Source: an archaeon (GTDB lineage Archaea > EX4484-52 > WAPT01). From it: a stretch of 21,359 nt of DNA. The stretch covers positions 1-21,359 of the forward strand of contig JAPDKB010000020.1 of NCBI GenBank assembly GCA_029258795.1. The letters are read 5' to 3'. Shown piece after piece: positions 2,659-20,907 of this stretch (positions are counted from its first letter, which is position 1; every line of letters starts with the position of its first letter). The translations under genes and the position numbers were made by a program. The notes beneath the pieces are model-generated. The model was not told the origin of the DNA, did no database searches, and saw nothing but the letters and a program-made list of their open reading frames with translations.

Positions 2659-2712
2659 ATACTGCCTCATGGTACAAAATTATAAAAATACGTACTACAT
2701 ATAATACAAGTC
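2659..2712 (+). promoter_or_regulatory. Promoter and putative operators of ATPase 1
   Basis: TTATAAAA at 2680-2687 is flanked by GTAC (2672-2675) and the imperfect palindrome GTACTACATATAATAC (2692-2707, 12/16). ATG is at 2713, with no SD. Confidence 0.55.
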
Positions 2713-4017
2713 ATGAGACGATATCTTATAGATAAAAAGGAAGATATAAAAGAATTGGAAGTAAAAGAAAGGGAGATTGGTTTCTTTGAAACACGATCTG
2801 TGGCTCAAACCATAATTGGGCCCAGAAGAGCTGGAAAGAGTTTCTCGCTCTTCTTTTGGATAAAGAAAAAAAAGCTAAGAGATGAGGATTATATCTTTGT
2901 GAACTTTGAAGATGATGAAATCAAAAACATGAAACGTGATGAAAAGGTTAGGTGTATTGAAGCACACCTTGAAATATACGGTAAGGAACCGAAATATCTG
3001 TTCTTTGACGAAATTCAGGAGCTTGAAAGATGGGAATCCTTTCTTTACAGTTTGGTGGAGAAAAGAAGATACGCTATTTTCGTAACGGGCTCAACCTCGA
3101 AAATCTCTAGCAAAGAAATAGCTTCAGAGCTTCGCGGTAGGTGTATAACAAAAGTTGTATTCCCTCTCAATTTTAGAGAATACATTAAAATAATGAGTGA
3201 GTATCACACCGCACCTCTTTCGAGTAGAAAGGAAAACATAATAAAACACAGACTTAAAACTTATCTGAACAGTAGTGGTTTTCCACAGATAGTGATAGAT
3301 GGTCTACCCCCAAAACTCTTCATTCGGGAGTATATTTCTACAGTCGTTTTTAGAGACCTTGTGGAGAAGTATCACATAGACAGCTTGTCAAATGCCCGTT
3401 ATTTTTTGGGTCGTGTTGTTGCAGCTTACGGAAATAGATTTTCAATTAACAAGGTTTATAATGAAATGAAGTCTTCAGGAATGAAGGTGGGTAAAGGTGT
3501 TCTCTACAATTATCTTGCTTATCTGGAGGATCTGTTGATAGCATTTTCATTAAGAAAATTCAGTTACTCAGAGAGAGAATCACAAGTATCCATCCCTAAG
3601 GTATTTCTGTGTGATCATGGGCTAGCCAATTACTTCATGACGACAAGATTTTCCGAAAATATTGGTAGGAATATGGAGAATGTGGTGTTCATCGAACTGA
3701 AGAAAGAATCATTCGAGAAAGATATTGAAATATTCTATTATCATGATCCGTTACAGCAGTACGAGGTTGATTTCGTTGTGAAGGAGGGAATGGAGGTGAA
3801 GCAGCTGATACAGGTCTGCTATGCTTCAAACTTTGATGAGGTGGAGCACAGGGAGCTCAGAGCATTGCTGAGAGCGAAGGATGTGCTGAACTGCAGGAAT
3901 TTGCTTGTCATAACATGGGATTATGAGGACACAAGAGAAATCAGGTGGTTTGGGAGAACTGGAAAAATAAGGTTTGTGCCTTTGTGGAAGTGGTTGCTCA
4001 ACCTCGCTAAAGCGTAA
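2713..4017 (+). CDS. AAA_14 + DUF4143 ATP-binding protein (COG1373 family), copy 1
   Basis: Walker A GPRRAGKS, Walker B FFDEIQ, TGS, LRGR, GFP, a wHTH-like segment, MENVVF and EVDF..LIQV. Confidence 0.92.
   Translation: MRRYLIDKKEDIKELEVKEREIGFFETRSVAQTIIGPRRAGKSFSLFFWIKKKKLRDEDYIFVNFEDDEIKNMKRDEKVRCIEAHLEIYGKEPKYLFFDEIQELERWESFLYSLVEKRRYAIFVTGSTSKISSKEIASELRGRCITKVVFPLNFREYIKIMSEYHTAPLSSRKENIIKHRLKTYLNSSGFPQIVIDGLPPKLFIREYISTVVFRDLVEKYHIDSLSNARYFLGRVVAAYGNRFSINKVYNEMKSSGMKVGKGVLYNYLAYLEDLLIAFSLRKFSYSERESQVSIPKVFLCDHGLANYFMTTRFSENIGRNMENVVFIELKKESFEKDIEIFYYHDPLQQYEVDFVVKEGMEVKQLIQVCYASNFDEVEHRELRALLRAKDVLNCRNLLVITWDYEDTREIRWFGRTGKIRFVPLWKWLLNLAKA
3753..4002 (+). repeat. Conserved 3' block, type A (pairs with 7863-8112)
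   Basis: 250 nt with 11 mismatches to 7863-8112 by manual alignment; offset 4110. Confidence 0.95.
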
Positions 4018-4128
4018 TCCTCAGGGCGTCAGATTTTCAACAGCACTCCTAGGATCCTGTGCTTTCGCCATCCTCTAAAATTAGTGACTTATGGAAACGG
4101 TTATAAGATTGTACAAAATTAATTAAAA

Positions 4129-4180
4129 TGAATCCCATTGGGATTAAATTTTATATATTTTTGAATCCCACTTATACCAT
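4129..4180 (+). promoter_or_regulatory. Promoter and putative operators of ATPase 2
   Basis: Palindrome AATCCCA-T-TGGGATT at 4131-4145 and TTTATATA at 4150-4157. TGAATCCCA is repeated at 4129 and 4162 (33-bp period). Confidence 0.7.
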
Positions 4181-5434
4181 ATGCTCAGGGATTATCTAAT
4201 AGAAATAAAAAGGGACATCTCGGAGCTGAGAGTGTATCCCCGAGATATAGATGTAAATGTGAATTATCCTCTTGCAATAGTTGGTCCTAGAAGAGCCGGA
4301 AAAAGTTTTTTTCTGTTTCATCTTATAAAAACGCTAAACCTTAATGAAGAGGACTACCTGTACGTCAACTTCGAGGACTATGAAGTAAAGACGACAGACC
4401 CGTCCCAGCTGTTACCGACGCATTTTGAAATATACAGGCGAGAACCAAAATACCTTTTTTTGGACGAGGTTCAGAGCATAAAGAACTGGAGCCATTTTGT
4501 GTACTCTTTGGTGGAGCGAAAGAAATACAGAGTCATCCTGAGCGGTTCTTCATCAAAGCTTTTATCAAAAGAGGTGGCATCTTTCTTGAGGGGTAGATTC
4601 CTGTCAAAGCTCTTGCTTCCTCTCTCGTTCAGCGAGTTTCTGACGTTCAGGAACGTGATGCTGGATGAAATTCTGAGCAGGAAGGACATATCGATAGTAA
4701 GAGGTTACTTAATGGAGTACCTGAAAAACGGAGGATTTCCTGAAATAGTTCTCGGGATCATAAGAAAAAAAGACTTTGTGAGGCAGTATCTGGATGTGGT
4801 GCTTTATAGAGATTTTGTTGAGAGATTTAATATAGAAAATCCGGAGGCAGCCAAATTCATTCTTTATTCTCTGATCCAGTCGAACGCCTCGAAAATCTCA
4901 TCAAACAAAATCTATAATCAGCTCAGACAGATAACAAAAGTGAGCAACAAAACGGTGAGGAAATATCTGTCTCTCTTTCAGGACACTTTGGTGATATTTT
5001 TCACAAAGAAATTCCATTACTCTGCGAAAAAAACACATCTGTCGCAACCCAAAATTTATTTATGCGACCTCTCCCTAGAGCTTGAGGAAGATGGTACGGG
5101 AAGAAAGATGGAAAATGTGGTGTTCTTGAATTTAATAAGGAGGGATCAAGAACCGTTCTACTTTGAAACCCATGAAGGCTATGAAGTGGATTTTCTGATT
5201 AAAAACGGCTTCCGGATCAAACAACTTATCCAAGTGACTTATGCCAGTTCCTTTGACGAGATAGAGCACAGAGAAATAAGGGCGTTGCTGCATGCTTATG
5301 ATGTGCTGAAGGAACACAAACCGGAACTGCTTGTGATAACATGGGATTATGAGGACACAAGGGAGATCAGGTGGTTCGGAAAGAGCGGGAAAATAAGGTT
5401 TGTGCCTTTGTGGAAGTGGTTGTTGAAAATTTAA
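4181..5434 (+). CDS. AAA_14 + DUF4143 ATP-binding protein, copy 2
   Basis: GPRRAGKS, FLDEVQ, SGSSSKLL, LRGR, GGFPE, MENVVF and EVDF..LIQVT. Confidence 0.92.
   Translation: MLRDYLIEIKRDISELRVYPRDIDVNVNYPLAIVGPRRAGKSFFLFHLIKTLNLNEEDYLYVNFEDYEVKTTDPSQLLPTHFEIYRREPKYLFLDEVQSIKNWSHFVYSLVERKKYRVILSGSSSKLLSKEVASFLRGRFLSKLLLPLSFSEFLTFRNVMLDEILSRKDISIVRGYLMEYLKNGGFPEIVLGIIRKKDFVRQYLDVVLYRDFVERFNIENPEAAKFILYSLIQSNASKISSNKIYNQLRQITKVSNKTVRKYLSLFQDTLVIFFTKKFHYSAKKTHLSQPKIYLCDLSLELEEDGTGRKMENVVFLNLIRRDQEPFYFETHEGYEVDFLIKNGFRIKQLIQVTYASSFDEIEHREIRALLHAYDVLKEHKPELLVITWDYEDTREIRWFGKSGKIRFVPLWKWLLKI
5267..5425 (+). repeat. Conserved 3' block, type B (copy 2)
   Basis: 5327-5382 is identical to 6669-6724 (56 nt). 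5390-5422 is identical to 3964-3996, 8074-8106 and 9408-9440 (33 nt). Confidence 0.93.
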
Positions 5435-5486
5435 TAATAACCATAATACAAAAATTTATAAAAATTGTATACCCATTATACAAATC
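5435..5486 (+). promoter_or_regulatory. Promoter and putative operators of ATPase 3
   Basis: TTTATAAA at 5455-5462 and palindrome TTGTATA-CCCAT-TATACAA at 5465-5483. CCATwATACAAA occurs at 5441 and 5473 (32-bp period). Confidence 0.7.
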
Positions 5487-6779
5487 ATGGTATTCAACGA
5501 CAGCCTTGTTTTGGAGTTCTTTGAAAGTATGGAGCGGAGATTGAAAACAGAGGATATAATTGAGAGAGATCTAAAAACAAAACCCGTCCGTGATAAGGTT
5601 GTAGTGATAATCGGTCCGAGAAGAGCTGGGAAAACTTACTATTTATTCCACAAGAAAAGAGAGCATGGTGGCGTCTACATCGATTTTGAGGGCATAGAGT
5701 TCAGCAAACTTGAGGGTGAAGATGTGATCAAAATAGTGAAATTGTATGAAAATTACTACAGCAGGAAGGTCGATGTGATCTATTTGGATGAGGTACAGAG
5801 TTTAAAAAACTGGGAAAGAGTTGTGAGATCGCTTTTGAATCTCAATTACAAGGTGTACGTCACAGGATCATCCTCTAAGCTTTTGAGCAAGGAAATCGCT
5901 TCTCTTTTAAGGGGCAGATCTCTCTCCTACCTCCTCCTGCCGTTCTCATTCGAGGAATTTCTGAAGGTAAAGCAACTTACCAAAAAAGAAACGTATTCTA
6001 TTTCAGAGGTCACCCGCATAAAGAATTATTTGAGAGATTACCTCGATATTGGTGGTTTTCCCGAAGTGGTTCTTAAAGAGGAAAAAGAAAAAATTCTGAG
6101 GGAATACGTTGACTTGGCTTTTTTCAAGGATTTCGTCGAGAGACACGAAATAAAGAGCATGGAAGTGGCCAGAATAATCTTTGAATACATTTTGCAGAAC
6201 TTCTCAAAGGAAATATCAATAACAAAAATTCAGAACTTCATAGAAAAAACAATCGGAGTGAAAACAAAGACCACAATCTACGATTATCTAGAGAAACTGC
6301 AAGACACCATGTTTTTCTTTTTTGTAGAGAGATATGAACCCAGTGTTTACAAGAGAAAAAAGTATCCAAAAAAAGCATATCTATGTGATGTGGGCCTGAC
6401 GAAAATTTTCAGATTTTCTGAGGATTCTGGCAAAAAGATGGAGAACGTTGTATTTCTAGAGATTTTAAGAAAAACTAATGAGAAAGCAATGGAAATCTAT
6501 TATCTGAGGACACGTGAGGGTTATGAGGTTGATTTCTTAGTGAAAGATGGTGAGAGAGTCACACAGCTTATACAGGTCACGCGTGCATCAGCTTTCGATG
6601 AAATAAATCACAGAGAAATAAGGGCGTTGCTGCACGCTTATAATATCCTAAAAGAACACAAACCGGAGCTGCTTGTGATAACATGGGATTATGAGGACAC
6701 AAGGGAGATCAGGTGGTTCGGAAAAAGCGGAAAGATTAAATTCTTACCCCTCTGGAAGTGGTTGTTGGATATCAAATAA
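5487..6779 (+). CDS. AAA_14 + DUF4143 ATP-binding protein, copy 3
   Basis: GPRRAGKT, YLDEVQ, TGSSSKLL, LRGR, GGFPE, YLCDVG, MENVVF and EVDF..LIQVT. Confidence 0.92.
   Translation: MVFNDSLVLEFFESMERRLKTEDIIERDLKTKPVRDKVVVIIGPRRAGKTYYLFHKKREHGGVYIDFEGIEFSKLEGEDVIKIVKLYENYYSRKVDVIYLDEVQSLKNWERVVRSLLNLNYKVYVTGSSSKLLSKEIASLLRGRSLSYLLLPFSFEEFLKVKQLTKKETYSISEVTRIKNYLRDYLDIGGFPEVVLKEEKEKILREYVDLAFFKDFVERHEIKSMEVARIIFEYILQNFSKEISITKIQNFIEKTIGVKTKTTIYDYLEKLQDTMFFFFVERYEPSVYKRKKYPKKAYLCDVGLTKIFRFSEDSGKKMENVVFLEILRKTNEKAMEIYYLRTREGYEVDFLVKDGERVTQLIQVTRASAFDEINHREIRALLHAYNILKEHKPELLVITWDYEDTREIRWFGKSGKIKFLPLWKWLLDIK
6564..6767 (+). repeat. Conserved 3' block, type B (copy 3)
   Basis: 6570-6622 is identical to 9246-9298 (53 nt), and 6669-6724 is identical to 5327-5382. 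Confidence 0.93.
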
Positions 6780-6787
6780 TTGAAAAC

Positions 6788-6837
6788 TTCCTCATAATAA
6801 GGAAAAATTTTTAAAAAATTAGTTCTATAATAAGGAC
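6788..6837 (+). promoter_or_regulatory. Promoter and putative operators of ATPase 4
   Basis: Imperfect palindrome TTCCTCATAATAAGGAA at 6788-6804 and TTTAAAAA at 6810-6817. ATAATAAGGA occurs at 6794 and 6827 (33-bp period). Confidence 0.7.
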
Positions 6838-8127
6838 ATGCTTCGAAAAGATGTAGTGGATTTTCTAAAAGAGTACGAAGAATTCAGGCCAGAAATAATC
6901 GAGCGGGATTTAGAAATAACACCAAGCATCAAATTTATAACCTCGATAATCGGTCCGAGAAGGGCCGGGAAAACTTACTATCTTCTTCATCTTAGAGAAA
7001 AATTCAAAAAACCCCTGTATCTCAACTTTGAAGACACGAGACTAATGGACACAAAGGGAAAAGAGCTCAGAGAGATCATAAGAATATTCATGGAAATATA
7101 TGGTGCTTCTCCAGATGTGCTGCTTTTAGATGAGGTTCAAAATCTCCCTGAATGGGAAGGAGTGCTCAGAGAGCTTCACGACCTGAAGAAATATCCAATA
7201 GTAGTGACGGGCTCTTCATCCCGTCTTCTTGCAAGAGAGATAGCAACACAGCTGAGGGGGAGAACGCTAACGTACATTCTTTTACCTTTTTCCTTCACTG
7301 AATTTTGTAAAGCAAAGAAAATAATCGTTAATGACTTGCTCTCCAGAGATGAAGAAGCGAAATTTATTGCCCTTCTAAGAGAATATCTCCAATTCGGTGG
7401 GTTCCCGGATGTTGTTTTGAGCGAGGATAAACTGAAGATCTTAAAAGAATATTCAGATCTTATTCTGTTCCGGGATTTCATTGAAAGACACGAAATCAGA
7501 AATCTGAGCCTAGCAAGACATATATTTTCGTTCATCACGCAGAATTTTTCAAAGGAGATATCGGTAAACTCCCTATACAATCGCTTCCGTTCCAGCGGTC
7601 TGAGAGTTTCCAAGGACACCATCTACGAATATCTGGAAAAGCTTGAGGACACGCTTTTTGTTTTCTTCCTGCAGAAATATTCTCTGAAAGTGCACATGAG
7701 AGAATCATATCCAAAAAAAGTATATGTGTGCGACACGGGAATAACACGAGTTACGAGATTTAGCGAGGATTTGGGCAAGCTCATGGAAAATGCTGTTTTT
7801 CTGGAGCTCAGGAGGAGGGAGAACGCGAACCCGTTGCAGGAAATCTACTATTTCAAGGATGCACAGCAGTACGAGGTTGATTTCGTTGTGAAGGAGGGAA
7901 CGGAGGTGAAGCAGCTGATACAGGTTTGCTATGCTTCAAGCTTTGATGAGGTGGAGCACAGGGAGCTCAGAGCATTGCTGAGAGCGAAGGATGTGCTGAA
8001 CTGCAGGAATTTGATTGTGATAACATGGGACTATGAGGGCACAAGGGAGATCAGGTGGTTCGGGAGAACTGGAAAAATAAGGTTTGTGCCTTTGTGGAAG
8101 TGGTTGCTGAACATCAACTTTCCGTAA
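6838..8127 (+). CDS. AAA_14 + DUF4143 ATP-binding protein, copy 4
   Basis: GPRRAGKT, LLDEVQ, TGSSSRLL, LRGR, GGFPD, YVCDTG, MENAVF and EVDF..LIQVC. Confidence 0.92.
   Translation: MLRKDVVDFLKEYEEFRPEIIERDLEITPSIKFITSIIGPRRAGKTYYLLHLREKFKKPLYLNFEDTRLMDTKGKELREIIRIFMEIYGASPDVLLLDEVQNLPEWEGVLRELHDLKKYPIVVTGSSSRLLAREIATQLRGRTLTYILLPFSFTEFCKAKKIIVNDLLSRDEEAKFIALLREYLQFGGFPDVVLSEDKLKILKEYSDLILFRDFIERHEIRNLSLARHIFSFITQNFSKEISVNSLYNRFRSSGLRVSKDTIYEYLEKLEDTLFVFFLQKYSLKVHMRESYPKKVYVCDTGITRVTRFSEDLGKLMENAVFLELRRRENANPLQEIYYFKDAQQYEVDFVVKEGTEVKQLIQVCYASSFDEVEHRELRALLRAKDVLNCRNLIVITWDYEGTREIRWFGRTGKIRFVPLWKWLLNINFP
7863..8112 (+). repeat. Conserved 3' block, type A (pairs with 3753-4002)
   Basis: About 96% identical to 3753-4002 (11 mismatches in 250 nt). 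Confidence 0.95.
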
Positions 8128-8129
8128 TG

Positions 8130-8161
8130 AAATGCACAAAAATTTAAATTTTTGTGCATTT
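8130..8161. promoter_or_regulatory. 32-bp perfect palindrome centred on the TATA box of ATPase 5
   Basis: AAATGCACAAAAATTT|AAATTTTTGTGCATTT, with TTTAAA at 8143-8148, about 26 nt before ATG 8172. Confidence 0.75.
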
Positions 8162-8171
8162 AATGTTGATC

Positions 8172-9455
8172 ATGTTGGAGATTCATGAAAGACTCCTTCG
8201 ACAGAAGAGAGAAGTTGAAAACATACTCGCTGAAAGGTTCGTAGAGAGGGATCTGCTCCGGAAAATGAAAAGATGGCTGAACTCAGATATTATAAAAATT
8301 GTGTCTGGAGTCAGACGCTCCGGAAAGTCGTTCCTTGCCATTCATTCTGTCAAGAACGTTCCTTTCGCATACGTGAACTTCGATGATGAGATGTTATGCG
8401 AAGCAAAGTTTGATGAGATTCTGAAACATCTCCGTGCAATTCACGGAGATTTCAAACTCTTGATTCTTGATGAAATTCAGAATGTGGATAGATGGGAACT
8501 TGTGGTAAACAGGTTGAAAAGGGAAGGGTACAACCTCGTGATCACAGGCTCAAACGCCAACCTGCTCAGTAAGGAACTCGCAACACACCTAACCGGCAGA
8601 TATGTTGAATTCACACTCTACCCCTTCAGCTTTCTGGAATACCTGAGAGCAAGGAACGTGAAACTGAATGTTGAGGTTGCCGAAGATGTGGGTGATCTTC
8701 TTCATCATCTGGAAGATTACATGAAGAGTGGCGGGTTCCCGGAAGTTGTAATTAAAAATTATGATCCACAGGAGTACCTGAACACCCTGCTGAAGGCGAT
8801 ACTGCTAAAAGATATTGTAAACAGATACAGACCAAAGTATCCATCGCATATTTCAAATTTAGCATATTACCTCCTCTCGAACATAAGTCACAGAGTATCG
8901 TTTTCCCGGCTCAAAAACATTCTTAATGTTGGAAGCGTCCACACAGTGGAGAAATACTGCAATTATCTACAGGAAGCTTTTATTTTCTTTTTCCTGAGAC
9001 CGTTCTCCTATAAAATAAGTGAACAATTAAAATCTCCCCGCAAAGTTTATTGTGTAGATACAGGATTTATTCGCTCCTCTGGTTTTCGCTTCTCTGAGAA
9101 TTTCGGAAAATTCATGGAAAACATAGTTTTTCTGGAACTTGTAAAAAAATTCAGATGCAACCTCGAGCTGTTTTATTATCATGACGTTGCTCGACAATAT
9201 GAAATTGATTTTCTCGTAAAGAGCGATCTGAGAGTTAGGCAGCTCATACAGGTCACGCGTGCATCAGCTTTCGATGAAATAAATCACAGAGAAATAAGAG
9301 CTTTGCTGCACGCTTATGATGTCCTAAAAGAACACAAGCCGGAGCTGCTTGTCATAACGTGGGACTATGAGGACACAAGAGAAATCAGGTGGTTTGGGAG
9401 GAGTGGGAAAATAAGGTTTGTGCCTTTGTGGAAGTGGTTGCTGGGGATCGGTTAG
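8172..9455 (+). CDS. AAA_14 + DUF4143 ATP-binding protein, copy 5 (most divergent)
   Basis: GVRRSGKS, ILDEIQ, TGSNANLL, LTGR, GGFPE, YCVDTG, MENIVF and EIDF..LIQVT. I moved the start from GTG 8154, which lies inside the promoter palindrome, to ATG 8172 to match the TATA spacing of the other copies. Confidence 0.9.
   Translation: MLEIHERLLRQKREVENILAERFVERDLLRKMKRWLNSDIIKIVSGVRRSGKSFLAIHSVKNVPFAYVNFDDEMLCEAKFDEILKHLRAIHGDFKLLILDEIQNVDRWELVVNRLKREGYNLVITGSNANLLSKELATHLTGRYVEFTLYPFSFLEYLRARNVKLNVEVAEDVGDLLHHLEDYMKSGGFPEVVIKNYDPQEYLNTLLKAILLKDIVNRYRPKYPSHISNLAYYLLSNISHRVSFSRLKNILNVGSVHTVEKYCNYLQEAFIFFFLRPFSYKISEQLKSPRKVYCVDTGFIRSSGFRFSENFGKFMENIVFLELVKKFRCNLELFYYHDVARQYEIDFLVKSDLRVRQLIQVTRASAFDEINHREIRALLHAYDVLKEHKPELLVITWDYEDTREIRWFGRSGKIRFVPLWKWLLGIG
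9240..9443 (+). repeat. Conserved 3' block, type B mosaic (copy 5)
   Basis: Shares 53 nt with copy 3, GAGGACACAAGAGAAATCAGGTGGTTTGGGAG with copy 1, and the 33-nt end with copies 1, 2 and 4. Confidence 0.93.
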
Positions 9456-12240: not shown

Positions 12241-14343
12241 TTACACTGTTACTGTTGAGATTATAGGACCAAATATTGCCATGATAAGCGCGTAAATTAG
12301 CAGATACATGGGCAGGCCCACCAGTAACAACTTCCATATTGTGTCGTGTTCATAAACCTTATCATCTCCTGCTTCTATCCTTGCTATGAACATGCCGGAA
12401 ATGATCAGCACTTCCACCACATAAATACCCACCACCAGCTGAAGAAGTTCTGAAGGTATTGCACCACCTCCGAGTCGGGGTAGGTTGCTTTCAGGCAGAC
12501 CTTCAACACCCCCGCCGATATCCAGCGTGCTCATCTGTTGCATTATCTTTTCCAGTATGTTGAGTATGAGTTTCGCTATACCCACAACCACTCCAGAAAT
12601 AACTGGCACGAGCACGTAGGCCTGGAATTTTAAGCTCGAAACCACGGTGGAAAGCAGATCCTCTATCTTCTCCTGAGTTGTGCGTATGTTGCGCAAATAC
12701 CTGCCTATTGTTAGCATGACTACAGCAGCTGACCTCGAGCCGTGCTGGATTGCGTCGGCTATAGCTTTCATTATGGCGGAAATCATGGCTGAAGGATAGT
12801 AGCGTAAAGCTCCGAACTGCTTGTTGAAGATAGCTTCCTTGAAGGTCATGTTGAGCTGTGTCATGTTCTTTATTATAATCCTTAGAAAATCCGCTATCTT
12901 CATTTCTTTGATGTCCTGCTCCGCTTTTACAAGCGCCGTCTCGACCGGCAGCTCATCCATCAGCCGGTTACCCAAGGCAAAAAGCACTTCCTCGTACTCC
13001 TTTTCCATCTCTATTATTTCCTGTCTCAATTTTCTCTTCTGAAAACAGCTGAGGTAAAAGTAGAGAGCTGCACTCATGCCAAGCAAAACAACAAAACCCA
13101 TACTGACAAGCATTGTATGGCTAATGCTCTCAACCTTGGTTGTAAAAAAGTTGGTTAAAATCATGATTTTGAGGAGAGGTGCAGAAAGAGTGAGGAAAAG
13201 TGCTGATGCTGGCAAAATGGCTGGAATGATGATGCGTTTACCTATAATATCTATCTTGAACTTTCCTGGAGGTATATAATCAGGATGCTTGCTTATCTCA
13301 ACGGTGGTGTGTGTTGGAGGTCTTTTCATAAATATCTGGTTTAGTAGTATGAACACGAATAGAGGTAAAACTACATCATAACCAACGAAGAGTGTCTTTC
13401 CTATATTTGGCCCGATCTCCTGCATGAACACACCCACGAGAGGGAAAACTATCATACCCATAACAGGCAATAGTATGCCCAAACCGTGCAACACCATGAC
13501 AGGTGTTTCCAGCTCCCTCACATACCTCTTCATCTGCTCATCCATTTCAAGGAGAACCAAATCGATTGCTTTGTTCAGCATCATGTCTTTTCTTTCTGGA
13601 GATGGTTCGAGCATGCTCTGCCTTATGAGGTGGATTGCCTCCACCAGCTCTTTATTGTAGCGCCTCCATACCTTCAAATAGTCAAGAAGAGCATCCTCAA
13701 CCGTTGTGAACTGTCCTATTTCAACTTTCCACAGAACTTCTTTTAAGTCCTGGGCAAGCTTCCCTTCCAGATTGGAGGCAGCAAATCTTACAGCTCCTTC
13801 AAAATTAGGGTTGGTCTTCATGTATACTATCATGTAAAGCACAGCCAGCAAAAGCTCCTTTCCAGTCCTTATCCTCATCCAAGCAGCTTTGTGGAGGGGA
13901 TAGTAAATGATGAGATAAGCTATGATAATGGGTACGAGTAAAAGTCCTATCTTTATGTAAGCTGAAATGGGGAAGTAAAAAGTGGGAATAAGGAATATGA
14001 GAGAAATTATTGCCATAAGTACGCCAGTGGATATGACTTCCGTGGGCTTGACTTTCAATCCTGCAAAATTTATTGCGGCTTCCAGTTCATTCATGAAATC
14101 ATCAGAAAACTTTATATTGAGGTTGGGTGCTGATTTACAAAGTTTTTCATAATAGGTTAGCATTTTCGCTTTCAGCTCTTCCTCTTTGAAAAGCTTGTAC
14201 TCTAGTGAGATCGCTTCCTCTCCTTCCTTTTTTTTCTCTTCAGGAACTATAATATTGTATCTTTTAACTATTTCCTTCATCAACCTCTCTTTTTCCATTT
14301 TTTCTTCCAGCTTTTCCTTTTCCTTGGATGCCATCCCGCTCAC
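12241..14343 (-). CDS. Type IV pilus/T2SS-F membrane platform protein (TadB/TadC/ArlJ-like, two repeats fused)
   Basis: About 700 aa multi-pass membrane protein with two T2SSF-like cytoplasmic repeats (NPNFEGAVRFAA; ELPVETAL), 2 bp downstream of a secretion ATPase. The start may be ATG 14334. Confidence 0.8.
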   Translation of the reverse strand: MSGMASKEKEKLEEKMEKERLMKEIVKRYNIIVPEEKKKEGEEAISLEYKLFKEEELKAKMLTYYEKLCKSAPNLNIKFSDDFMNELEAAINFAGLKVKPTEVISTGVLMAIISLIFLIPTFYFPISAYIKIGLLLVPIIIAYLIIYYPLHKAAWMRIRTGKELLLAVLYMIVYMKTNPNFEGAVRFAASNLEGKLAQDLKEVLWKVEIGQFTTVEDALLDYLKVWRRYNKELVEAIHLIRQSMLEPSPERKDMMLNKAIDLVLLEMDEQMKRYVRELETPVMVLHGLGILLPVMGMIVFPLVGVFMQEIGPNIGKTLFVGYDVVLPLFVFILLNQIFMKRPPTHTTVEISKHPDYIPPGKFKIDIIGKRIIIPAILPASALFLTLSAPLLKIMILTNFFTTKVESISHTMLVSMGFVVLLGMSAALYFYLSCFQKRKLRQEIIEMEKEYEEVLFALGNRLMDELPVETALVKAEQDIKEMKIADFLRIIIKNMTQLNMTFKEAIFNKQFGALRYYPSAMISAIMKAIADAIQHGSRSAAVVMLTIGRYLRNIRTTQEKIEDLLSTVVSSLKFQAYVLVPVISGVVVGIAKLILNILEKIMQQMSTLDIGGGVEGLPESNLPRLGGGAIPSELLQLVVGIYVVEVLIISGMFIARIEAGDDKVYEHDTIWKLLLVGLPMYLLIYALIMAIFGPIISTVTV

Positions 14344-14345
14344 TT

Positions 14346-16619
14346 TCAGAGTTTTTTAACCTCACTCCTCAACCAGCTCCTCCATAAGTTAAATGCTCGC
14401 TCATTATCGAGAGTCCCGTATTCTTCTATAACACGCTCGGAGATGATGTGGAAAGCCACATTGGCCCTCACGTAAAAATCAGCTTCCATAATCGCGAGGT
14501 TTCCTGTCTGTCTCGCCACATTGACCAGTTCCTCTTTCATTTTAGCTCTTATTTCTATGTTGTTCCATACCGCCTCCCAGTCATCGCGCCATTCCTTCAC
14601 ACGTTTGGCAATTTCGTTCAATATCAAGCTCTCTCCATTTAGCAGCGTTTCGGTTGGAACAAGTTCATCCTTTTTAGCATCATAAACCATGAGCGGAACG
14701 AAAGCCCCTTCCTTGACAGGATCCTCACTCCAGTCCTTCCTGACCTCTGTAATTTCCACCACTCTCCTGAAGGTGTGCAGACCATCGGCAGACCTCAATC
14801 TGTTCGCTATGACTATGATGTCCGTCGCCTTGAAGCTTGTGGGCGGCACTTCCAGATCGTTCACCACCCTATCAAACACACCGTAAGGAGAATCTCCGTG
14901 GATTGTGCCCGCCACAACGTTGGCTAAGGCGCCTATACGCATGGCTTCATAAAGAGCTCTTGCTTCCACACTCCTAACCTCTCCTAGAATCAAGCATGAA
15001 TCACCAAGCCTTAAGGAAACGCGCAGCGCTTCATCCGTCGGAAGCTCGCTCTCCACATGCGTGATTATGGAACGGGATTTTAAGCGGGCTATGTTGTAGC
15101 CCAGCCGCCTTAGATACTCCACCGGGAGCTCAAGCGTATCTTCCACAGTCACTATTCTGTAGCGCGGTAATATTTCGGTTAAGGTAGAACCAAGCAATGA
15201 TGTTTTACCAGCACTTCTAGTCCCCGCGTAAAGGATGGTGCGAGCTCCATCTATTATGAAAGAGATAAGTCCAGCAGCCAATGGGTTAAGCATCCTGTTA
15301 TGGATGAACAGTGGCATTGTCCACGGCTTATCTCTATGCCTTCTGAACGCAAAGGCATAGCCATCTGGGCTTAAGCTTCTGGTTATGGCTGCAACTCTGA
15401 CCCTTGCATAGGGGGTTATCATCTCCGTGTCAAGCACAGGATTTGATTCATCCAGAGGTCTTCCACTCTCTATTCTGAAGCGTGTGGCCCATGCTTCGGC
15501 ATCCTCCTGCGTTGGAATTATGTTGGTTATGCACTCCTCGTAATCAGAATGGAAGAGAAAGATAGGGGTTGTGCCGATGGGAGCGTTTATGTAGAGGTCC
15601 TGCACTTTTTCATCAGCCATCAGCACTTCAAGAATTCCATAGCCAGCAGTATACCTCGCCAAAATATTTGCCAGCTTGTTTATACTCTCTGTGCTGATTT
15701 CCAGCCTCATGTGTTCGGCAAGCTCGAGCAATAGATCCTTACCTATGTTAAAAAATATTTCTCTCGCTCTCTCCGGCTCAGCAAATTCTGCTCTTGTGGG
15801 CTTGTGCGCACCAAGGTACTGGCGTGCGGCATCAAGCAGAACGTATTCATCCTCGCTCAGCGCGAGTTCAGGAGGGATTATGTGATATTGATATTCTGGC
15901 CTTGTTGTGAGTTTGAATATCTGCACCTTTATGTCCTTACCCACAGTATAGCTGTCAATCTCCTTTCCATCAGATGGTGGGAGAAGCATGAAGCGTGTGA
16001 ACATGAAATTGGGCCTTATTATGGGGTGGAATATCTCGCGATAAATGCTTCTATCCCCCACCCTATACTCATCAAGTCGGGATTTCACAAGGTTTATGAG
16101 CTGCGTGTTTTCAAGCGCGGCTTTTAGGGGGAGAAGAGCATTTTGGAGGTAGTGGTTGATCGATTGCTGTGTTCTACCTCTGGCAACCTTTGCTCGGAGA
16201 GTTTCCTTCTTAATCTCTTTGAGGAGTGTTATATAAGCACCTATCGGGTCGCGCTTCATAATGTTAAGCAGGAGGTTCTGAATAAACGCTATTCTTGCTG
16301 GAGCCTCTGGATCGTTTGGGAATGGAGTTACCGCCCTTATAGATATGAGTTTGTTTTCGGTTGTGTAGTACTTTATGGTGGACGCTATCTCCTGAAGCAT
16401 CGAGGTCTGGGGGTAATCATATTCGAAATCCCTTGTTTGGGAGAGAACAACGCTTTGCACACCCTTTATCTGCATTAGCTTGTCTATGACTCTCGACATG
16501 CACTCCTCAAAATCCTCTATGCTCGCTCCGTACATGCAACCCAGACAGTTTATTTTGAGGCGGTGGAGCTTTCTGTCATATTCGTAGCTGCAGGGCTTTG
16601 GCATTTCCATCTGGGGCAT
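14346..16619 (-). CDS. Type II/IV secretion ATPase (VirB11/CpaF/ArlI family)
   Basis: Walker A GTRSAGKT, Asp box VTVEDTLEL, Walker B ILGEVRSVEA, His box GTIHG and RRVVEITEV. It has a long N-terminal extension with four Cys, and RBS AAGGTG. Confidence 0.92.
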   Translation of the reverse strand: MPQMEMPKPCSYEYDRKLHRLKINCLGCMYGASIEDFEECMSRVIDKLMQIKGVQSVVLSQTRDFEYDYPQTSMLQEIASTIKYYTTENKLISIRAVTPFPNDPEAPARIAFIQNLLLNIMKRDPIGAYITLLKEIKKETLRAKVARGRTQQSINHYLQNALLPLKAALENTQLINLVKSRLDEYRVGDRSIYREIFHPIIRPNFMFTRFMLLPPSDGKEIDSYTVGKDIKVQIFKLTTRPEYQYHIIPPELALSEDEYVLLDAARQYLGAHKPTRAEFAEPERAREIFFNIGKDLLLELAEHMRLEISTESINKLANILARYTAGYGILEVLMADEKVQDLYINAPIGTTPIFLFHSDYEECITNIIPTQEDAEAWATRFRIESGRPLDESNPVLDTEMITPYARVRVAAITRSLSPDGYAFAFRRHRDKPWTMPLFIHNRMLNPLAAGLISFIIDGARTILYAGTRSAGKTSLLGSTLTEILPRYRIVTVEDTLELPVEYLRRLGYNIARLKSRSIITHVESELPTDEALRVSLRLGDSCLILGEVRSVEARALYEAMRIGALANVVAGTIHGDSPYGVFDRVVNDLEVPPTSFKATDIIVIANRLRSADGLHTFRRVVEITEVRKDWSEDPVKEGAFVPLMVYDAKKDELVPTETLLNGESLILNEIAKRVKEWRDDWEAVWNNIEIRAKMKEELVNVARQTGNLAIMEADFYVRANVAFHIISERVIEEYGTLDNERAFNLWRSWLRSEVKKL

Positions 16620-16717
16620 AAAGTGACACCTTTTGGTTGTGGTGGTGTGGCTAACTTATATATTAATGTTTGGTCACCACATATTAATATAGTTGCATAA
16701 AATGCGAGCTTAAAGGT
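16620..16717. promoter_or_regulatory. Divergent promoter region
   Basis: TATA-like TTATATATTAAT at 16656-16667 and ATATTAATATA at 16681-16691. The inverted repeat TGTGGTG (16638-16644) / CACCACA (16675-16681) brackets the first. Confidence 0.5.
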
Positions 16718-16723
16718 GTGGAG

Positions 16724-17137
16724 ATGAGAGGTTCTGATATCAACACGATGGTCAACGAACTGTTGAGAAGAGTAAACGATAATATGAGAAGGATAAGGTT
16801 GATTGAGGAGCGCTTGAGAAATGTAGAGGTGAGGTTGAACGCTTTCGAGCGGGATTTGATCTCTTTTGAGAAGGAGATGAACAAAAAGAGTGGGGATATT
16901 GATCATGCAATAAAGCTGATTGAGGACAAAATGATAAATATAGAGACTGACATAATAGAGTTGAGGAAGGAAATAAAGAAGCTCGCGAAAGTTAGCGATA
17001 TTGAGGAGATGAAGCGTTACATAGAGTTGATATCTCCCGTCACAACCAGATATGTGACAAAAAAGGAAGTGGAGGAGATGATAAAAGAAAAGATTGAGGA
17101 ATTGCTGGAGGAGGAGCAAGGTGGGCTTGTTAGATAA
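16724..17137 (+). CDS. Coiled-coil hypothetical protein
   Basis: Continuous heptad pattern, E/K/R-rich. ATG 16724 follows AAGGTGTGGAG; GTG 16718 is the alternative start. Confidence 0.8.
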   Translation: MRGSDINTMVNELLRRVNDNMRRIRLIEERLRNVEVRLNAFERDLISFEKEMNKKSGDIDHAIKLIEDKMINIETDIIELRKEIKKLAKVSDIEEMKRYIELISPVTTRYVTKKEVEEMIKEKIEELLEEEQGGLVR

Positions 17138-17951
17138 TCTCTTTGGGAAGAAGGGTAAGAGCAGTGCATCAAAAGCTGGTAGTATTACTCCTTCCCCCTC
17201 TCCACAAAAATTACCACCCATGCAACCTGCTCCTCCAATCCCTTCTCCAATATCTGCTGCTCCCCAACCATCTTATGGGCTCGCTGATGAAACCAGATGG
17301 GTTAATTATGCCATGTCTCTCTTCTCGCAGGGGTATGGTGAAGCTGAGGTCAGGTCTGCTTTGTTATCCAACGGACTGGATGCTAATGAAATAGACAGAA
17401 TAATGACCAAAGTTATGAGGCAGGTTGTCACTTCCAGAGATAGCTATTCTCCTGCAGAATACTCAGCACCGCAGCCATTTTCGGGAGAAGACGAGGGTGT
17501 GTTTGATCTAACCCCGATGAGAAGCGGGAATGAAGAAAATGTGAGTGGTGGAAGTGAGTATTATGAGGATTATGATGAGGATTTGAGTTTCATGGAAGAA
17601 GTTTCCTCGTTAATAGAAAGCACCATAAATGAGAAGTTGGAAGTTGTGAATGACAGAATGGAAGAGATTATGAGCAGGCTTGAAAATTTAGAGAGGAATT
17701 TGAACGCGCTTTCATCAAAGTTTGAGGAGACGGTAAAAACGCTGGAAGAAAAGGACAGGGAAATTGAAAATGAGTTGAATGATCTCAAGGACAAGCTGGC
17801 AAAGTTTGACCCCAGAGTGAAAAGCTTGGAAGACGCGTTTAAAGACATAGTGCCCAACTTGGTTGATAACGTCAGAGAGGTTAGAGAGCTTGTCATGGAA
17901 ATTAAGCACAAAGAAGAAGTTAAAAAGCACAGGAAATTAAGAGAAATCTAA
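17121..17951 (+). CDS. Hypothetical protein: N-terminal amphipathic helix, Pro-rich linker, small helical domain, long coiled coil
   Basis: Likely start is GTG 17121 after GGAGGAGGAG (MGLLDNLFGKKGK), overlapping the upstream stop. The C-terminus is heptad-rich. Confidence 0.8.
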   Translation: MGLLDNLFGKKGKSSASKAGSITPSPSPQKLPPMQPAPPIPSPISAAPQPSYGLADETRWVNYAMSLFSQGYGEAEVRSALLSNGLDANEIDRIMTKVMRQVVTSRDSYSPAEYSAPQPFSGEDEGVFDLTPMRSGNEENVSGGSEYYEDYDEDLSFMEEVSSLIESTINEKLEVVNDRMEEIMSRLENLERNLNALSSKFEETVKTLEEKDREIENELNDLKDKLAKFDPRVKSLEDAFKDIVPNLVDNVREVRELVMEIKHKEEVKKHRKLREI

Positions 17952-17954
17952 AGG

Positions 17955-18416
17955 TTATTTCTTAGCTATCAAATACACAGCCCCAAAAGTCACTAAAAGA
18001 ACTATGATCGTCATGACTGTTTCTGAACTGATTGAAGCTGTGGTGCCACTTGCAAGCATGTATGCAATGGCAACTATTATTACTGCGCCTATTCCGGCTA
18101 TGTATTTGGTATCGCCTCCAAAAACCTCTTCCGGCTTGACGCCGAAAAGAGCCAAGAAAATTATCAGAATTACTATAGCGGCTATTATCGTTCCCGCTAT
18201 CCCGAAAATCTGGGTGAAGAAAACACCCCTCAATGTGTACGTTGCCAGGAAAGCTATGGCTATTGCTATTGCACCATTCACCGAAACTTCCTCACTTATC
18301 GTTTTTTTGTTCTGAAGGATTCCAAAGACCACTGCAAGGATAAGAACGAATGGCATGAAAAAGTCGTAAAATCCGAGCTGTGCCAGGTTATCAAGCACAC
18401 TCTGAATCAAAGACAT
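17955..18416 (-). CDS. Small multi-pass membrane protein, paralog A
   Basis: About 5 hydrophobic segments, motif LGFYDFFMPFVLILAVVFGILQ, RBS GGTGAG. Confidence 0.85.
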   Translation of the reverse strand: MSLIQSVLDNLAQLGFYDFFMPFVLILAVVFGILQNKKTISEEVSVNGAIAIAIAFLATYTLRGVFFTQIFGIAGTIIAAIVILIIFLALFGVKPEEVFGGDTKYIAGIGAVIIVAIAYMLASGTTASISSETVMTIIVLLVTFGAVYLIAKK

Positions 18417-18444
18417 TCGCGCTCACCTATAGGATGATTCACTT

Positions 18445-18936
18445 TCATCCTCTCATCGCTATCCAGATGACCAGCAGGATGAATCCAAATACGAACAGCA
18501 CGGTCATAGTTTCCTGCGAGATACCAGCTGAAAGTCCTCCGCCGTAAGCGTTATTGTAAACTATCCATGCAAGAATGACCAAAGCTGCAACCACAATGTA
18601 TTTTATTTTGTCTTCTTGGAATATTCCGCCTTTCCCACCTCCAATCTCGAAGCCCATTATCGCAACAAAAAGCACCAAAACTAAAAGCGCTGACAGTATC
18701 ATGGACATGCCGCCGAAGAGTCTGGAGTAATAAGCGGCTATACCTCCAACAGGAGTGTAGTTCACAACAAAGAATGCTATGGCTGCTGAGATTATTGCGA
18801 TTATACCTCTATCCTCTCCAAAAATTCCAGTCCTCTGGAGCAATCCAAAAACTATGCCGAAGAAGAGGAGCCAGGGTAAAACAAAATCATAAAAGCCGAC
18901 CTGATTCAAAATGCCTATGACATCAAGGAAGTTCAT
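18445..18936 (-). CDS. Small multi-pass membrane protein, paralog B
   Basis: MNFLDV..LNQVGFYDFVLPWLLFFGIVFGLLQ. I placed the start at ATG 18936 from RBS AAAAGGTGAG and alignment to paralog C. Confidence 0.85.
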   Translation of the reverse strand: MNFLDVIGILNQVGFYDFVLPWLLFFGIVFGLLQRTGIFGEDRGIIAIISAAIAFFVVNYTPVGGIAAYYSRLFGGMSMILSALLVLVLFVAIMGFEIGGGKGGIFQEDKIKYIVVAALVILAWIVYNNAYGGGLSAGISQETMTVLFVFGFILLVIWIAMRG

Positions 18937-18956
18937 TTGACTCACCTTTTCAACCA

Positions 18957-19481
18957 TTATTTTTCTTGTTGATTTCCTCCACCGCCTTTCCCACCGCTCA
19001 TCGCTATCCAGATGACCAGCAGGATGAATGCAAGTGTGAGTATCACCACAAGCGTGTCGTTTGAAAGCCCTGCCCTTCCGTATCCACCAAGAGCGTTGGT
19101 GTATGCTAGATAAGCAAAGATGACAAGCATTATCACGACAGCGTATTTTATCGGAGGTTGTTTATCTCCACCCTCCTTGAACACATTCTCCACACCCATG
19201 ATAGCTGCGAACAGCATTAACACGAGTAAAGCTCCTATAATCATTCCAGCCCCTCCAAACAGTGTGGAGAAAAACTGAGCAAGAGTTGTGCCAGCGGGAG
19301 TGAAAGCAACTATGAAAAACGCTATGGCTGCTGATATTATTGCGTTTATGCCTCGCTCTTCAGTTATTATTTTCTTGTTTTGTAACAATCCAAAAATTAT
19401 GCCGAAAAACAGAAGCCACGGTACGACCACATCATAAAAGCCAACCTGATTGAGCACGTTCAGCACGTCAAGGAAGTTCAT
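18957..19481 (-). CDS. Small multi-pass membrane protein, paralog C
   Basis: MNFLDVLNVLNQVGFYDVVVPWLLFFGIIFGLLQ, RBS GGTGA. Confidence 0.85.
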   Translation of the reverse strand: MNFLDVLNVLNQVGFYDVVVPWLLFFGIIFGLLQNKKIITEERGINAIISAAIAFFIVAFTPAGTTLAQFFSTLFGGAGMIIGALLVLMLFAAIMGVENVFKEGGDKQPPIKYAVVIMLVIFAYLAYTNALGGYGRAGLSNDTLVVILTLAFILLVIWIAMSGGKGGGGNQQEK

Positions 19482-19534
19482 ACTGGCATCACCACCATTT
19501 CATGGTTCTTAGTTTGATTAAGGTATTGAAGGCA

Positions 19535-19548
19535 TATATAAATTTTAT
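19535..19548 (-). promoter_or_regulatory. Putative internal TATA promoter for paralogs C-B-A
   Basis: The minus strand reads ataaaaTTTATATA, about 55 nt upstream of ATG 19481. Confidence 0.45.
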
Positions 19549-20039
19549 CCATTCTCAGTTCCCGAATGTTTAGTTCCGAGCAGCAGGATCATTACCACTA
19601 TGAAAATACCAATACCCCACACCACATTTTCTTCCATGCTCGGACTTATGAATGACAGCATTCCTCCTTGGTAAAAGATGTAGAGCAGCAAGAGAAGGAA
19701 AAAAAGAACTATCACACTTATCATTGTGTCCCTAGAAGGGGATTGAGAATCTTTATCCTTACCAATTCCCAGATTGTTCTTGATCAGAATGAAAAGGAAC
19801 AGAAAAACTAGAATTACGGCGGCGTAAGGCATTATCTGCCAGATGAACATAACGACGCTCTGGTTGAGAGAGGCAAAAAGCGCTATAGCCACGGAAACGA
19901 GAGTGGCAGCTGACTTGTCTTTACCAAGGTTTGTGAGCTTGACCGTGCCAAAAACTATTGCAAAAATTAGCAAGAATGCTCCTGCAAACTGAATCAATGG
20001 GTCATTTGCCATGAAGTATGGGGAGAGCATGGGGGTCAC
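19545..20039 (-). CDS. Small multi-pass membrane protein, divergent paralog D
   Basis: AFLLIFAIVFG..K....KDKSAATLVSVAIALFA parallels the family motif, with about 5 TM segments. The start may be ATG 20030. Confidence 0.8.
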   Translation of the reverse strand: MTPMLSPYFMANDPLIQFAGAFLLIFAIVFGTVKLTNLGKDKSAATLVSVAIALFASLNQSVVMFIWQIMPYAAVILVFLFLFILIKNNLGIGKDKDSQSPSRDTMISVIVLFFLLLLLYIFYQGGMLSFISPSMEENVVWGIGIFIVVMILLLGTKHSGTENG

Positions 20040-20062
20040 TCGCTTTAGTTTTTCAGGAACTT

Positions 20063-20857
20063 TTAAACTATTGAAGGGTCACGATTTACATCTTTTTCCG
20101 CATTTCTAGTAATTTTTTCAGCTTCTTTATCCTTTATACCTCCGCTTTCTATTGTTGCTTCTGTGTCTTTTTCTACAATCTCTTTTATTTTTTTTCCGTA
20201 TCTTTTCATATACTCTTTTTTTATCTTTTCCCAATCTTCGTTAGTTATTCCTAATTTTATTCTTGTGTTTTCATTTTCTCTGAGCTTGTATTCTACATCA
20301 GCAAGCCGTTTGTGTAACTCTTGGATAACGTACGCCCACCCTTCTCCTTTCAATTCATGTTTTGACTCTATTCTCTCTATTGCTTTTCTGAGTACTTCCC
20401 TTTCATATTCTAATCTCACGGTTTCTCCGACTAGTTGAAACAAAAATGTCTTGTCGTACCTTTTGTATTTTTTGTAGAACCATTCTCCGAGTTTTCCCAT
20501 ACCCTTTGCTCCCAGTTTTAGAAGTCCTGCTTCCGTTTCTTTGCTCATTATCATTCGTTTGAAGGTTTTGAATGTGCCTAACACAAGAGCGATTATAAAG
20601 ATAGGGACAAATAGATGAGCTATCACTGGATACCATCCGTTAACTATTATGACAGCAAGTGCTCCAATAGTTATCAAATTTTTTACTTTTGTATGACCGC
20701 CAGCAAAAGTTGAGGAGAAGACATTTAGAATTATATACAAACCTATAACTGGAAGGAGTATCCCATATACTATATCATGAGTAAACTCTCCAGTTAGAAA
20801 TGGGTCAGCAGGATCAAATCTAAGGAGGGAATAAAACAGCATGTCGTATATGTCCAT
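20063..20857 (-). CDS. Membrane protein with about 3 N-terminal TM segments and a charged helical C-terminus
   Basis: 264 aa ORF with strong RBS GGAGGTGA and an upstream TTTTTATA. The N-terminus is hydrophobic and the C-terminus K/E-rich. Confidence 0.8.
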   Translation of the reverse strand: MDIYDMLFYSLLRFDPADPFLTGEFTHDIVYGILLPVIGLYIILNVFSSTFAGGHTKVKNLITIGALAVIIVNGWYPVIAHLFVPIFIIALVLGTFKTFKRMIMSKETEAGLLKLGAKGMGKLGEWFYKKYKRYDKTFLFQLVGETVRLEYEREVLRKAIERIESKHELKGEGWAYVIQELHKRLADVEYKLRENENTRIKLGITNEDWEKIKKEYMKRYGKKIKEIVEKDTEATIESGGIKDKEAEKITRNAEKDVNRDPSIV

Positions 20858-20907
20858 ATGGTTTCACCTCCATTACCGAAATTTTCATTTTCTTTCAATA
20901 TAAAAAT

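Follow-up and report, generated by a model that had tools for sequence, protein, structure and literature searches.

Five tandem ATPase genes and their promoters

The DNA analysed here (hereafter the window) is a stretch of 21,359 nucleotides of the archaeal contig JAPDKB010000020.1, and our subject is an array of five tandem genes within it, together with the repeated motifs that surround the TATA box of each gene. The five open reading frames (ORFs) lie on the + strand at 2713–4017, 4181–5434, 5487–6779, 6838–8127 and 8172–9455, and are called c1 to c5 in that order. All match Pfam AAA_14 (E = 4e-34 to 7e-31; 107–118 bits against a cut-off of 27) and Pfam DUF4143, a PD-(D/E)XK-like domain (E = 9e-24 to 1e-18; 68–85 bits against a cut-off of 28.1). 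They also match the PADLOC model PDLC04787, for the candidate defence system PDC-S01, over nearly the whole profile (E = 3e-87 to 2e-104; 2e-89 for c1). Judged by sequence, all five are members of COG1373/PDC-S01. A winged helix is predicted between the two Pfam domains, at 3370–3621 in c1, 4826–5074 in c2, 6144–6395 in c3, 7489–7740 in c4 and 8826–9065 in c5. Overall identity among the five proteins is 38–47%, and the last ~90 residues are nearly identical.

An A/T-only TATA-like box is present in all five promoters, with its centre 25–29 nt ahead of the ATG, and no Shine–Dalgarno (SD)-like word was found ahead of any of the five genes; this combination fits leaderless transcripts. Three in-frame start candidates are available for c5 (GTG 8154, ATG 8163 and ATG 8172), of which ATG 8172 is the only one at the family-typical distance, 26.5 nt after the common centre of TATA box and palindrome, and fits a leaderless start. 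A sigma-70 promoter scan gave no excess (15 found against 15.2 expected), and such a scan is irrelevant for an archaeon.

The region from −70 to +3 of each gene was compared with 2000 dinucleotide-preserving shuffles. The c2 promoter (4129–4170, + strand) carries a 9-nt direct repeat at 4129–4137 and 4162–4170 (9/9 matches at an offset of 33; P = 0.008 for offsets 30–35 and 0.076 for any offset 12–60) on either side of a TATA box at 4149–4160. In the c3 promoter (5441–5484, + strand) a 12-nt repeat with one mismatch lies at 5441–5452 and 5473–5484, and the direct repeat scores 14/16 at an offset of 32 (P = 0.006 for offsets 30–35, 0.053 for any offset 12–60); the TATA box lies at 5455–5464 and is flanked by inverted hexamers within 5446–5470. 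The c4 promoter (6788–6836, + strand) has a direct repeat at 6794–6803 and 6827–6836 (10/10 at an offset of 33; P = 0.004 and 0.028 for the same two ranges) around a palindromic TATA region at 6806–6820. One repeat copy of each of these three genes also falls within a tight palindrome, at 4131–4145 (15 bp, holding the upstream copy of c2), 5465–5483 and 6788–6804, respectively. The c5 promoter is a perfect 32-bp palindrome at 8130–8161, to which no strand is assigned, centred on the TATA box and reached by none of the 2000 shuffles; it lacks a direct repeat at 32–33 bp and has an inverted pair about 22 bp apart instead. The c1 promoter (2658–2698, + strand) comprises a distal box at 2658–2665, a middle box at 2671–2679, the TATA box at 2679–2689 and a proximal box at 2691–2698. 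Four of the five copies thus exceed chance individually, and c1 is backed by conservation only.

An earlier reading of the letters alone (the original prediction) had described a TATA box about 25–29 nt before each ATG, no SD word, and repeats around each TATA box of similar geometry and different sequence, with a period of 32–33 bp. The TATA boxes and the lack of SD words are borne out by our sequence check. So is the difference in sequence between copies, as each motif of at least 8 nt is found in the window solely at its own promoter. The repeats themselves hold up against shuffles in c2 to c5 and not in c1 taken alone, and the period is that of c2 to c4 but not of c5.

The promoter layout in other genomes

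A scan of genome contigs with the five-protein alignment gave 80 further loci, with 34–55% identity in the best aligned segment; most are in DPANN and Methanosarcinales assemblies, and the source genome of the window is not among them. With a profile of the five proteins, 114 family ORFs were collected from the 80 loci and the window. Six with E above 1e-60 were dropped, as were eight that lacked a usable start or lay near a contig end, leaving 100 genes with 90 nt of upstream sequence each; one gene with an N in this region was excluded from counts. The controls, drawn from the same loci, comprised 377 other ORFs of 120 aa or more, with the upstream 60 nt largely intergenic and with starts taken as the first ATG, uncurated.

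Direct repeats scoring at least 8 precede 34% of the family genes and 11% of the controls (Mann–Whitney P = 6.5e-9 for direct repeats). For inverted repeats the figures are 61% against 17% at a score of at least 8 and 32% against 3% at a score of at least 10 (P = 5.7e-23). When offsets were free between 20 and 45, with a score of at least 7, 30 of 50 family repeats fell at 32–33 bp, compared to 9 of 91 control repeats, and the centres of inverted repeats lay at −24 to −28 in 33 of 60 family cases and in 7 of 63 controls. The layout was then scored as either a direct repeat of at least 7 at an offset of 31–34 or an inverted repeat of at least 8 centred between −31 and −22, after removal of proteins more than 90% identical. 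It was found in 57 of 90 family promoters and in 33 of 377 controls (odds ratio 18, Fisher P = 1e-26), and in 53 of 85 non-redundant homologs when the five genes of the window were left out. The repeats thus exceed A/T-rich background both by the shuffles, for c2 to c5, and by comparison with control genes.

The finer arrangement is also regular. A TATA consensus match of at least 7/8 is present in 71 of the 100 family genes, centred at −24 to −30 in 65 of those 71, and an SD-like word in only 2 of the 100. An inverted copy of the half-site occurs in 60 of 99 genes, with 55 of the 60 centred between −23.5 and −29.5; a direct copy occurs in 35 of 99, and 29 of the 35 are at 32–33 in a search limited to offsets 28–38. 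Typically, a forward half-site near −50 and then an inverted half-site near −40 precede the TATA box, and another forward half-site near −15 follows it. On this sampling the layout is a family-wide feature of the archaeal members examined.

These counts bear on two other explanations of the repeats. Chance repetition in A/T-rich intergenic DNA could be argued from c1, which is not significant alone, and from the A+T content of the upstream regions, which is 76% for the family against 70% for the controls. It is, however, contradicted by the shuffles, by the control genes from the same loci, by the sharp preference for offsets of 32–33 and by conservation across genomes, and we regard it as most improbable. 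Almost as hard to credit is a role of the palindromes in RNA, as terminator hairpins of the upstream gene or as leader structures. The c2 palindrome is indeed flagged as terminator-like, that of c5 begins 3 nt past the c4 stop, and the layout is somewhat commoner in genes that follow a family gene (17 of 22) than in those without one upstream (45 of 77). Yet the TATA box marks the centre of the elements, which keep a constant distance to the ATG that follows, the direct repeats at 32–33 bp form no hairpin, a leaderless start leaves the proximal box outside its own transcript, and no Rfam family match was found anywhere in the window.

Motifs private to each gene and conserved between genomes

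Within loci the motifs differ: 48 of 49 same-locus paralog pairs share no proximal box. Between genomes, homologs keep common motifs despite diverged flanks. The c1 gene and its homolog in locus L002 are 53% identical in their N-terminal part and have the distal, middle and proximal boxes in common, which rescues the weak case of c1. TGCA-type arms around the TATA box, the outer arms of the c5 palindrome, recur in genes of L077, L068 and L055. The AAGGA/TCCTT-type motif of c4 is common to L029, L030, L068 and L031, and the ATCCC core of c2 to L004, L005 and L008; for the c3 motif no clear partner was seen among the homologs compared.

Family genes stand alone or next to one another in arrays, and no other gene is consistently linked to its promoters in the 80 loci and the window. 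In a test of 26 genes and 365 kb, a gene's own 9-mers are not enriched elsewhere in its locus: they gave 5 matches, and the motif of another gene 4.9 +/- 3.1. A local regulon is thus not indicated.

Comparable arrays are seen in two Aenigmatarchaeota assemblies, with six paralogs at 7239–15181 of L068 and five at 8566–15575 of L037, each paralog having its own motif. The adjacent motif types TGTTTCC and then TTGT(A/T)CTA stand in the same order in both arrays.

A predicted winged helix between ATPase and nuclease-like domain

An AlphaFold model of c2, built with 100 sequences, has a predicted local distance difference test score (pLDDT) of 95 and a predicted template modelling score (pTM) of 0.93. 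The modelled protein comprises an AAA+ core, a helical lid (167–216), a winged helix and an alpha/beta domain (306–417), with winged-helix helices at 221–233, 241–249 and 256–269 (helix 3) and the wing at 272–294. Residues 216–298 modelled alone again gave a winged helix, of order helix-helix-helix-strand-strand, at pLDDT 93.7. Its nearest solved folds by Foldseek are the DNA-binding winged helices of PerR/Fur, PadR, BlaI/MecI, MepR and Orc1/Cdc6 (TMq 0.55–0.67). The models therefore place a predicted winged-helix domain of the DNA-binding type between the ATPase and the nuclease-like domain. This is where the original prediction had put a region resembling a helix-turn-helix (HTH), and the recognition-helix sequences that it quoted are correct and fall on helix 3 of the confidently modelled domain.

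For the whole protein, DNA-bound archaeal Orc1/Cdc6 (E = 3e-8) leads the structural matches together with the archaeal ATPases SSO1545 and PAB2304, ahead of the origin recognition complex, clamp loaders, TnsC and STAND proteins. A profile search of Protein Data Bank (PDB) sequences with the family gave 0 matches. In 100 sequences the Walker A motif G-x-R-R-x-G-K and the Walker B motif D-E are invariant or nearly so, and in the C-terminal part D296, E311 and D337, putative catalytic residues, are invariant and E335 nearly so. DUF4143 is listed among the PD-(D/E)XK families with no known function in a survey of that superfamily (PMC3424549).

What operator type travels with

Sorted by helix-3 sequence, the promoters form groups that are visible by eye. 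S-V-H-T goes with TGTGCA arms, S-D-H-T-A-K with TTCGCA, D-L-H-T-I-K-D-W with GTTTGTG, S-K-K-T-L-A-N-Y with TGTTTCC, S-K-K-T-L-Y with TTTACCC, and G-K-G-V-L-Y (c1 and the L002 gene) with GTACTAC. A common proximal box is found in 205 of 4005 pairs. It is predicted by identity in the ATPase (area under the curve 0.77), the lid (0.76) and the winged helix (0.75), with 0.56 for the nuclease domain, and a sliding-window predictor of operator similarity falls to ~0.50 past residue 305. Operator type co-inherits with the whole N-terminal 296 residues, that is with ATPase, lid and winged helix, and not with the nuclease domain. A model in which each protein regulates its own gene needs this co-inheritance, yet the co-inheritance is no proof of that model.

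Among the eight nearest relatives of each gene, the best of 69 twelve-residue windows are 247–258, at the start of helix 3 (0.246), and 163–174, in the lid (0.244); the next best is 217–228, in helix 1 (0.214). Residues 163–174 of c2, encoded at 4667–4702 of the window, belong to the lid domain, and may mark a second DNA contact or merely the lineage. Single-linkage clustering of the proximal boxes was abandoned, as 48 genes were chained together via common A/T flanks.

The same data could be explained if the readers of the boxes were unlinked regulators, paralogous general factors or the like, and if the look of autoregulation were due to co-inheritance of promoter and gene. The correlation of operator type with the N-terminal module as a whole, rather than with the helix in particular, agrees with such an explanation. 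Against it, dozens of motifs would require dozens of matching unlinked factors, the family has no conserved partner gene, and the distribution of own 9-mers gives no sign of a local regulon. We consider this explanation quite unlikely.

Concerted evolution of the nuclease half

The 3' quarter (last ~250 nt) of c1 to c5 is a mosaic of near-identical DNA, in which identity is 97% between c3 and c5 over one stretch of 20 codons and 90% between c2 and c3 over a different one; the remainder of the genes shows 25–69% nucleotide identity. One gene-conversion tract on the + strand pairs 3753–3998 of c1 with 7863–8108 of c4, with 10 mismatches in 246 nt. A 7-mer that is the reverse complement of the c2 half-site also occurs at 3916, 5342 and 6684, in the conserved 3' coding block of c1, c2 and c3; these copies are probably due to chance, though they lie inside the homogenised region.

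In the wider sample, same-locus pairs are 35% identical in the N-terminal part and 64% in the C-terminal domain, compared to 34% and 48% for pairs from different loci. FastTree trees of 40 genes, drawn from 14 multi-copy loci, were scored by the number of changes in locus label. The C-terminal tree requires 21, fewer than any of 500 shuffles (minimum 27); the N-terminal tree requires 29, close to the shuffled mean of 30.9 (minimum 27). The C-terminal domains cluster by locus and the N-terminal parts do not, and concerted evolution within a genome therefore marks the nuclease domain. The promoter together with the ATPase, lid and winged helix forms old and distinct lineages.

A nuclease domain that is homogenised next to a promoter invites another reading of the boxes. 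They could be bound by the cognate protein mainly for loading or assembly, as Orc1/Cdc6 is on its origin boxes, or they could mark the place where the nuclease itself nicks, repair of which would drive gene conversion in the 3' end of the upstream neighbour. Orc1/Cdc6 binds inverted boxes that flank an A/T-rich stretch, beside its own gene, and the whole-protein fold of c2 is nearest to the DNA-bound form of that protein. The homogenised 3' ends do adjoin the next promoter, and a nuclease domain in which three acidic residues are invariant is fused to the putative reader. However, the boxes stand in fixed register with the TATA box and the ATG, as promoter function predicts; c5 is also homogenised though no family promoter lies downstream of it; and the layout is present in many genes that have no family gene upstream. 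We judge this reading unlikely. Taken together, the four alternatives to autoregulation considered here hold about a quarter of the probability.

A model of self-regulated promoters

We favour, somewhat more than we doubt, the reading that each protein acts as a repressor bound to its own promoter, a reading drawn from sequence comparison. Each gene would form an independent leaderless transcription unit, whose promoter carries two to four copies of a private half-site around the TATA box. In the usual family layout the forward copy near −50 is followed by an inverted copy near −40 that abuts the transcription factor B recognition element (BRE), by the TATA box at about −27 and by a forward copy near −15, between TATA box and start. 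The outer two copies, 32–33 bp apart, are separated by about three helical turns, and the inner two make up the inverted pair centred on the TATA box. With spacings of about 10–11, 22–23 and 32–33 bp, the sites would all lie on roughly the same side of the DNA. The boxes occupy the positions at which archaeal repressors act, covering or adjoining the BRE and filling the gap from TATA box to start.

The likeliest reader would be the gene's own product, acting through its winged helix and possibly aided by the lid, because dozens of motifs need dozens of readers and only the gene itself is consistently linked to its boxes. Occupied sites would bracket TBP and TFB and cover the start site, so that negative autoregulation is to be expected, perhaps modulated by ATP or a ligand. 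Five co-resident paralogs with five motifs would then constitute five circuits without cross-talk.

A number of results weigh against this reading. The first of them concern the link between operator and recognition helix. In a partial Mantel test that controlled for the rest of the protein, the observed association of operator with helix 3 was reached in 132 of 2000 permutations; with helix 3 controlled for, that of operator with the rest was reached in 0 of 2000. Among 30 independent pairs the partial correlation of operator and helix is 0.11 (permutation P = 0.28), a test weakened because the automatic picker of 9-mer half-sites mis-registers some plainly common motifs, for example L037 14283 against L078 490. 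Six variable positions of helix 3, chosen beforehand, did no better than 30% of random position sets and took rank 38 among 143 local windows. A logistic model of four domains gave the winged helix a coefficient of 0.19 (reached in 27/300 permutations), below those of the ATPase (0.37; 1/300) and the lid (0.43; 1/300). Helix-specific covariation cannot be separated from shared ancestry, and attempts to do so failed or were marginal. The expectation of the original prediction that motif should track HTH type is thus upheld in part, by the visible helix-3 groups and by the placing of residues 247–258 among the two best of 69 windows, and falls short where a helix-specific signal is concerned.

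Other points concern the promoters. The c1 region has no internal repeat beyond chance (direct P = 0.41, inverted P = 0.32 in 2000 shuffles), in keeping with its earlier description as the weakest case. The layout thresholds are failed by 33 of the 90 family promoters. Same-locus pairs do not avoid shared motifs beyond random expectation (1 of 49, against 5.2% of random pairs). Five plasmid homologs (L081–L085, four bacterial and one archaeal) were checked and only two have individually significant upstream repeats, namely L083 (archaeal, offset 32, P = 0.023) and L084 (Moraxella, P = 0.026); an extension of the layout to bacteria is not established by these five.

The remaining points concern the protein. 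The Foldseek E-values of the isolated domain are weak (0.012–0.06, none at or below 0.001), all Pfam HTH matches of the winged-helix region fall below their cut-offs, and not every winged helix in the related STAND and clamp-loader folds reads DNA. The literature searched held no binding or expression data for the family.

A broader proposal, which we think unlikely, is that PDC-S01 is a two-part sequence-specific DNA sensor. One part would be a specificity cassette, made up of private operators, ATPase, lid and winged helix, of which many orthogonal recognition types would have evolved, and the other a common nuclease domain kept uniform within a genome by gene conversion. Arrays would then be an innate repertoire of readers of long motifs. 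Each protein would be held in check on its own promoter until a matching motif in an invader titrated the repressor away, which would de-repress the gene and bring the ATPase-nuclease to the invader. This would amount to restriction without modification, because the composite sites of 15–20 bp are otherwise absent from the host.

Relation to known systems

The c1 to c5 proteins match the PDC-S01 models end to end, and the defence role of PDC-S01 is a candidate one. In the passages of one survey that treat it, PDC-S01 is an archaeal-enriched fusion of an ATPase to a PD-(D/E)XK domain, with validation pending, and ranks fourth in frequency among defence candidates, with hits numbering 9986 in archaea and 29494 in bacteria (PMC12988326). 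PDC candidates are stated to be untested in a further report (bioRxiv 10.1101/2024.01.29.577857). One PDC-S01 was assayed in Escherichia coli B against T7, T5 and T4, and in the relevant part of that account it is not among the 4 of 8 candidates that were protective (bioRxiv 10.1101/2024.09.26.614923). The passages on PDC-S01 in these sources, with supplementary tables outside their scope, make no mention of promoters, operators, DNA specificity or modular evolution. The original prediction knew of no description of such promoter circuits for the family, and we likewise found no description of promoter sites or DNA specificity for DUF4143, COG1373 or PDC-S01 in the literature searched, supplementary files lying outside it.

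The resemblance to Orc1/Cdc6 lies in an AAA+ module followed by a winged helix, with the DNA-bound structures 2qby and 2v1u the best whole-protein matches and Orc1/Cdc6 among the best for the isolated domain, and in inverted sites that flank an A/T stretch near the gene itself. The differences are that the proteins of the window have no match to a Cdc6-family Pfam model or PDB sequence, that TM-scores are only 0.29–0.32, and that the COG1373 family has an extra nuclease domain. In addition, the A/T stretch here is a TATA box of 10–15 bp at a fixed distance from the ATG, and five different sites in a row are a poor fit to origins. Membership of Orc1/Cdc6 was rejected, as there is a resemblance of fold only and no sequence match. 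By TM-score the closest solved whole-protein folds are SSO1545 (2fna, 0.42) and PAB2304 (2qen, 0.40), both archaeal AAA+ proteins whose C-terminal part is helical or a winged helix, but the profile search finds no sequence match to them.

Archaeal repressors of the Lrp, TrmB and MarR types control their own genes from sites at the TATA box or immediately beyond it on the downstream side. Sites over BRE, TATA box and start, half-sites that are palindromic or repeated, a winged-helix reader and, as proposed here, action on the own promoter would all be common to these and to the genes of the window. They differ in being small dedicated factors. In COG1373 the putative reader is part of a larger protein that also has an AAA+ ATPase and a nuclease-like domain, and a single family has come to use many private motifs. 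DnaA is an AAA+ protein with an HTH domain that represses its own promoter in a nucleotide-dependent manner via DnaA boxes. It differs in having one conserved box for one protein, a bacterial promoter and no nuclease domain, and it is only a distant fold match (2hcb) to the window protein. We infer that the promoter architecture is a variant of operator-controlled, self-regulated archaeal promoters. What is unusual is the diversity of private motifs, the fusion of an ATPase-nuclease to the putative reader and the separate concerted evolution of the nuclease half.

An abundant candidate defence family hence gains a concrete property, predicted sequence-specific DNA recognition that begins with its own promoter, and the results yield a list of predicted cognate pairs of protein and operator. 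If the pairs are orthogonal, they would provide a natural set of non-cross-reacting archaeal repressor-operator parts.

Other observations

The family is present on 427 plasmid records in PLSDB, where it is named only 'ATP-binding protein', and in 22 of 50,697 phage records. Some plasmid family genes adjoin an integrase or Fic gene. In L081 and L082 the upstream palindromes overlap −35/−10-like boxes, as seen by eye. Family genes on contigs binned as Acidobacteriota, Nitrospirae, Thermodesulfobacterium and Omnitrophota (L009, L041, L043 and L078) have an archaeal-type TATA box at ~−27 and no SD word, which could be a matter of mis-binning or of recent transfer.

Within the window, the c1–c2 spacer (4018–4128 up to the c2 promoter boxes; 163 nt in all) is the longest in the array, and its first half is relatively rich in G+C, with no ORF or RNA family match. 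The array is flanked by an S-layer-like gene and a gene for a TmcA-type acetyltransferase, both on the opposite strand. Further along, a series of genes at 12241–21183 on the − strand takes in a T2SSE-type secretion ATPase (14346–16619), a protein of 700 aa and six smaller ORFs without a Pfam match; this series may be a pilus or archaellum-like locus.

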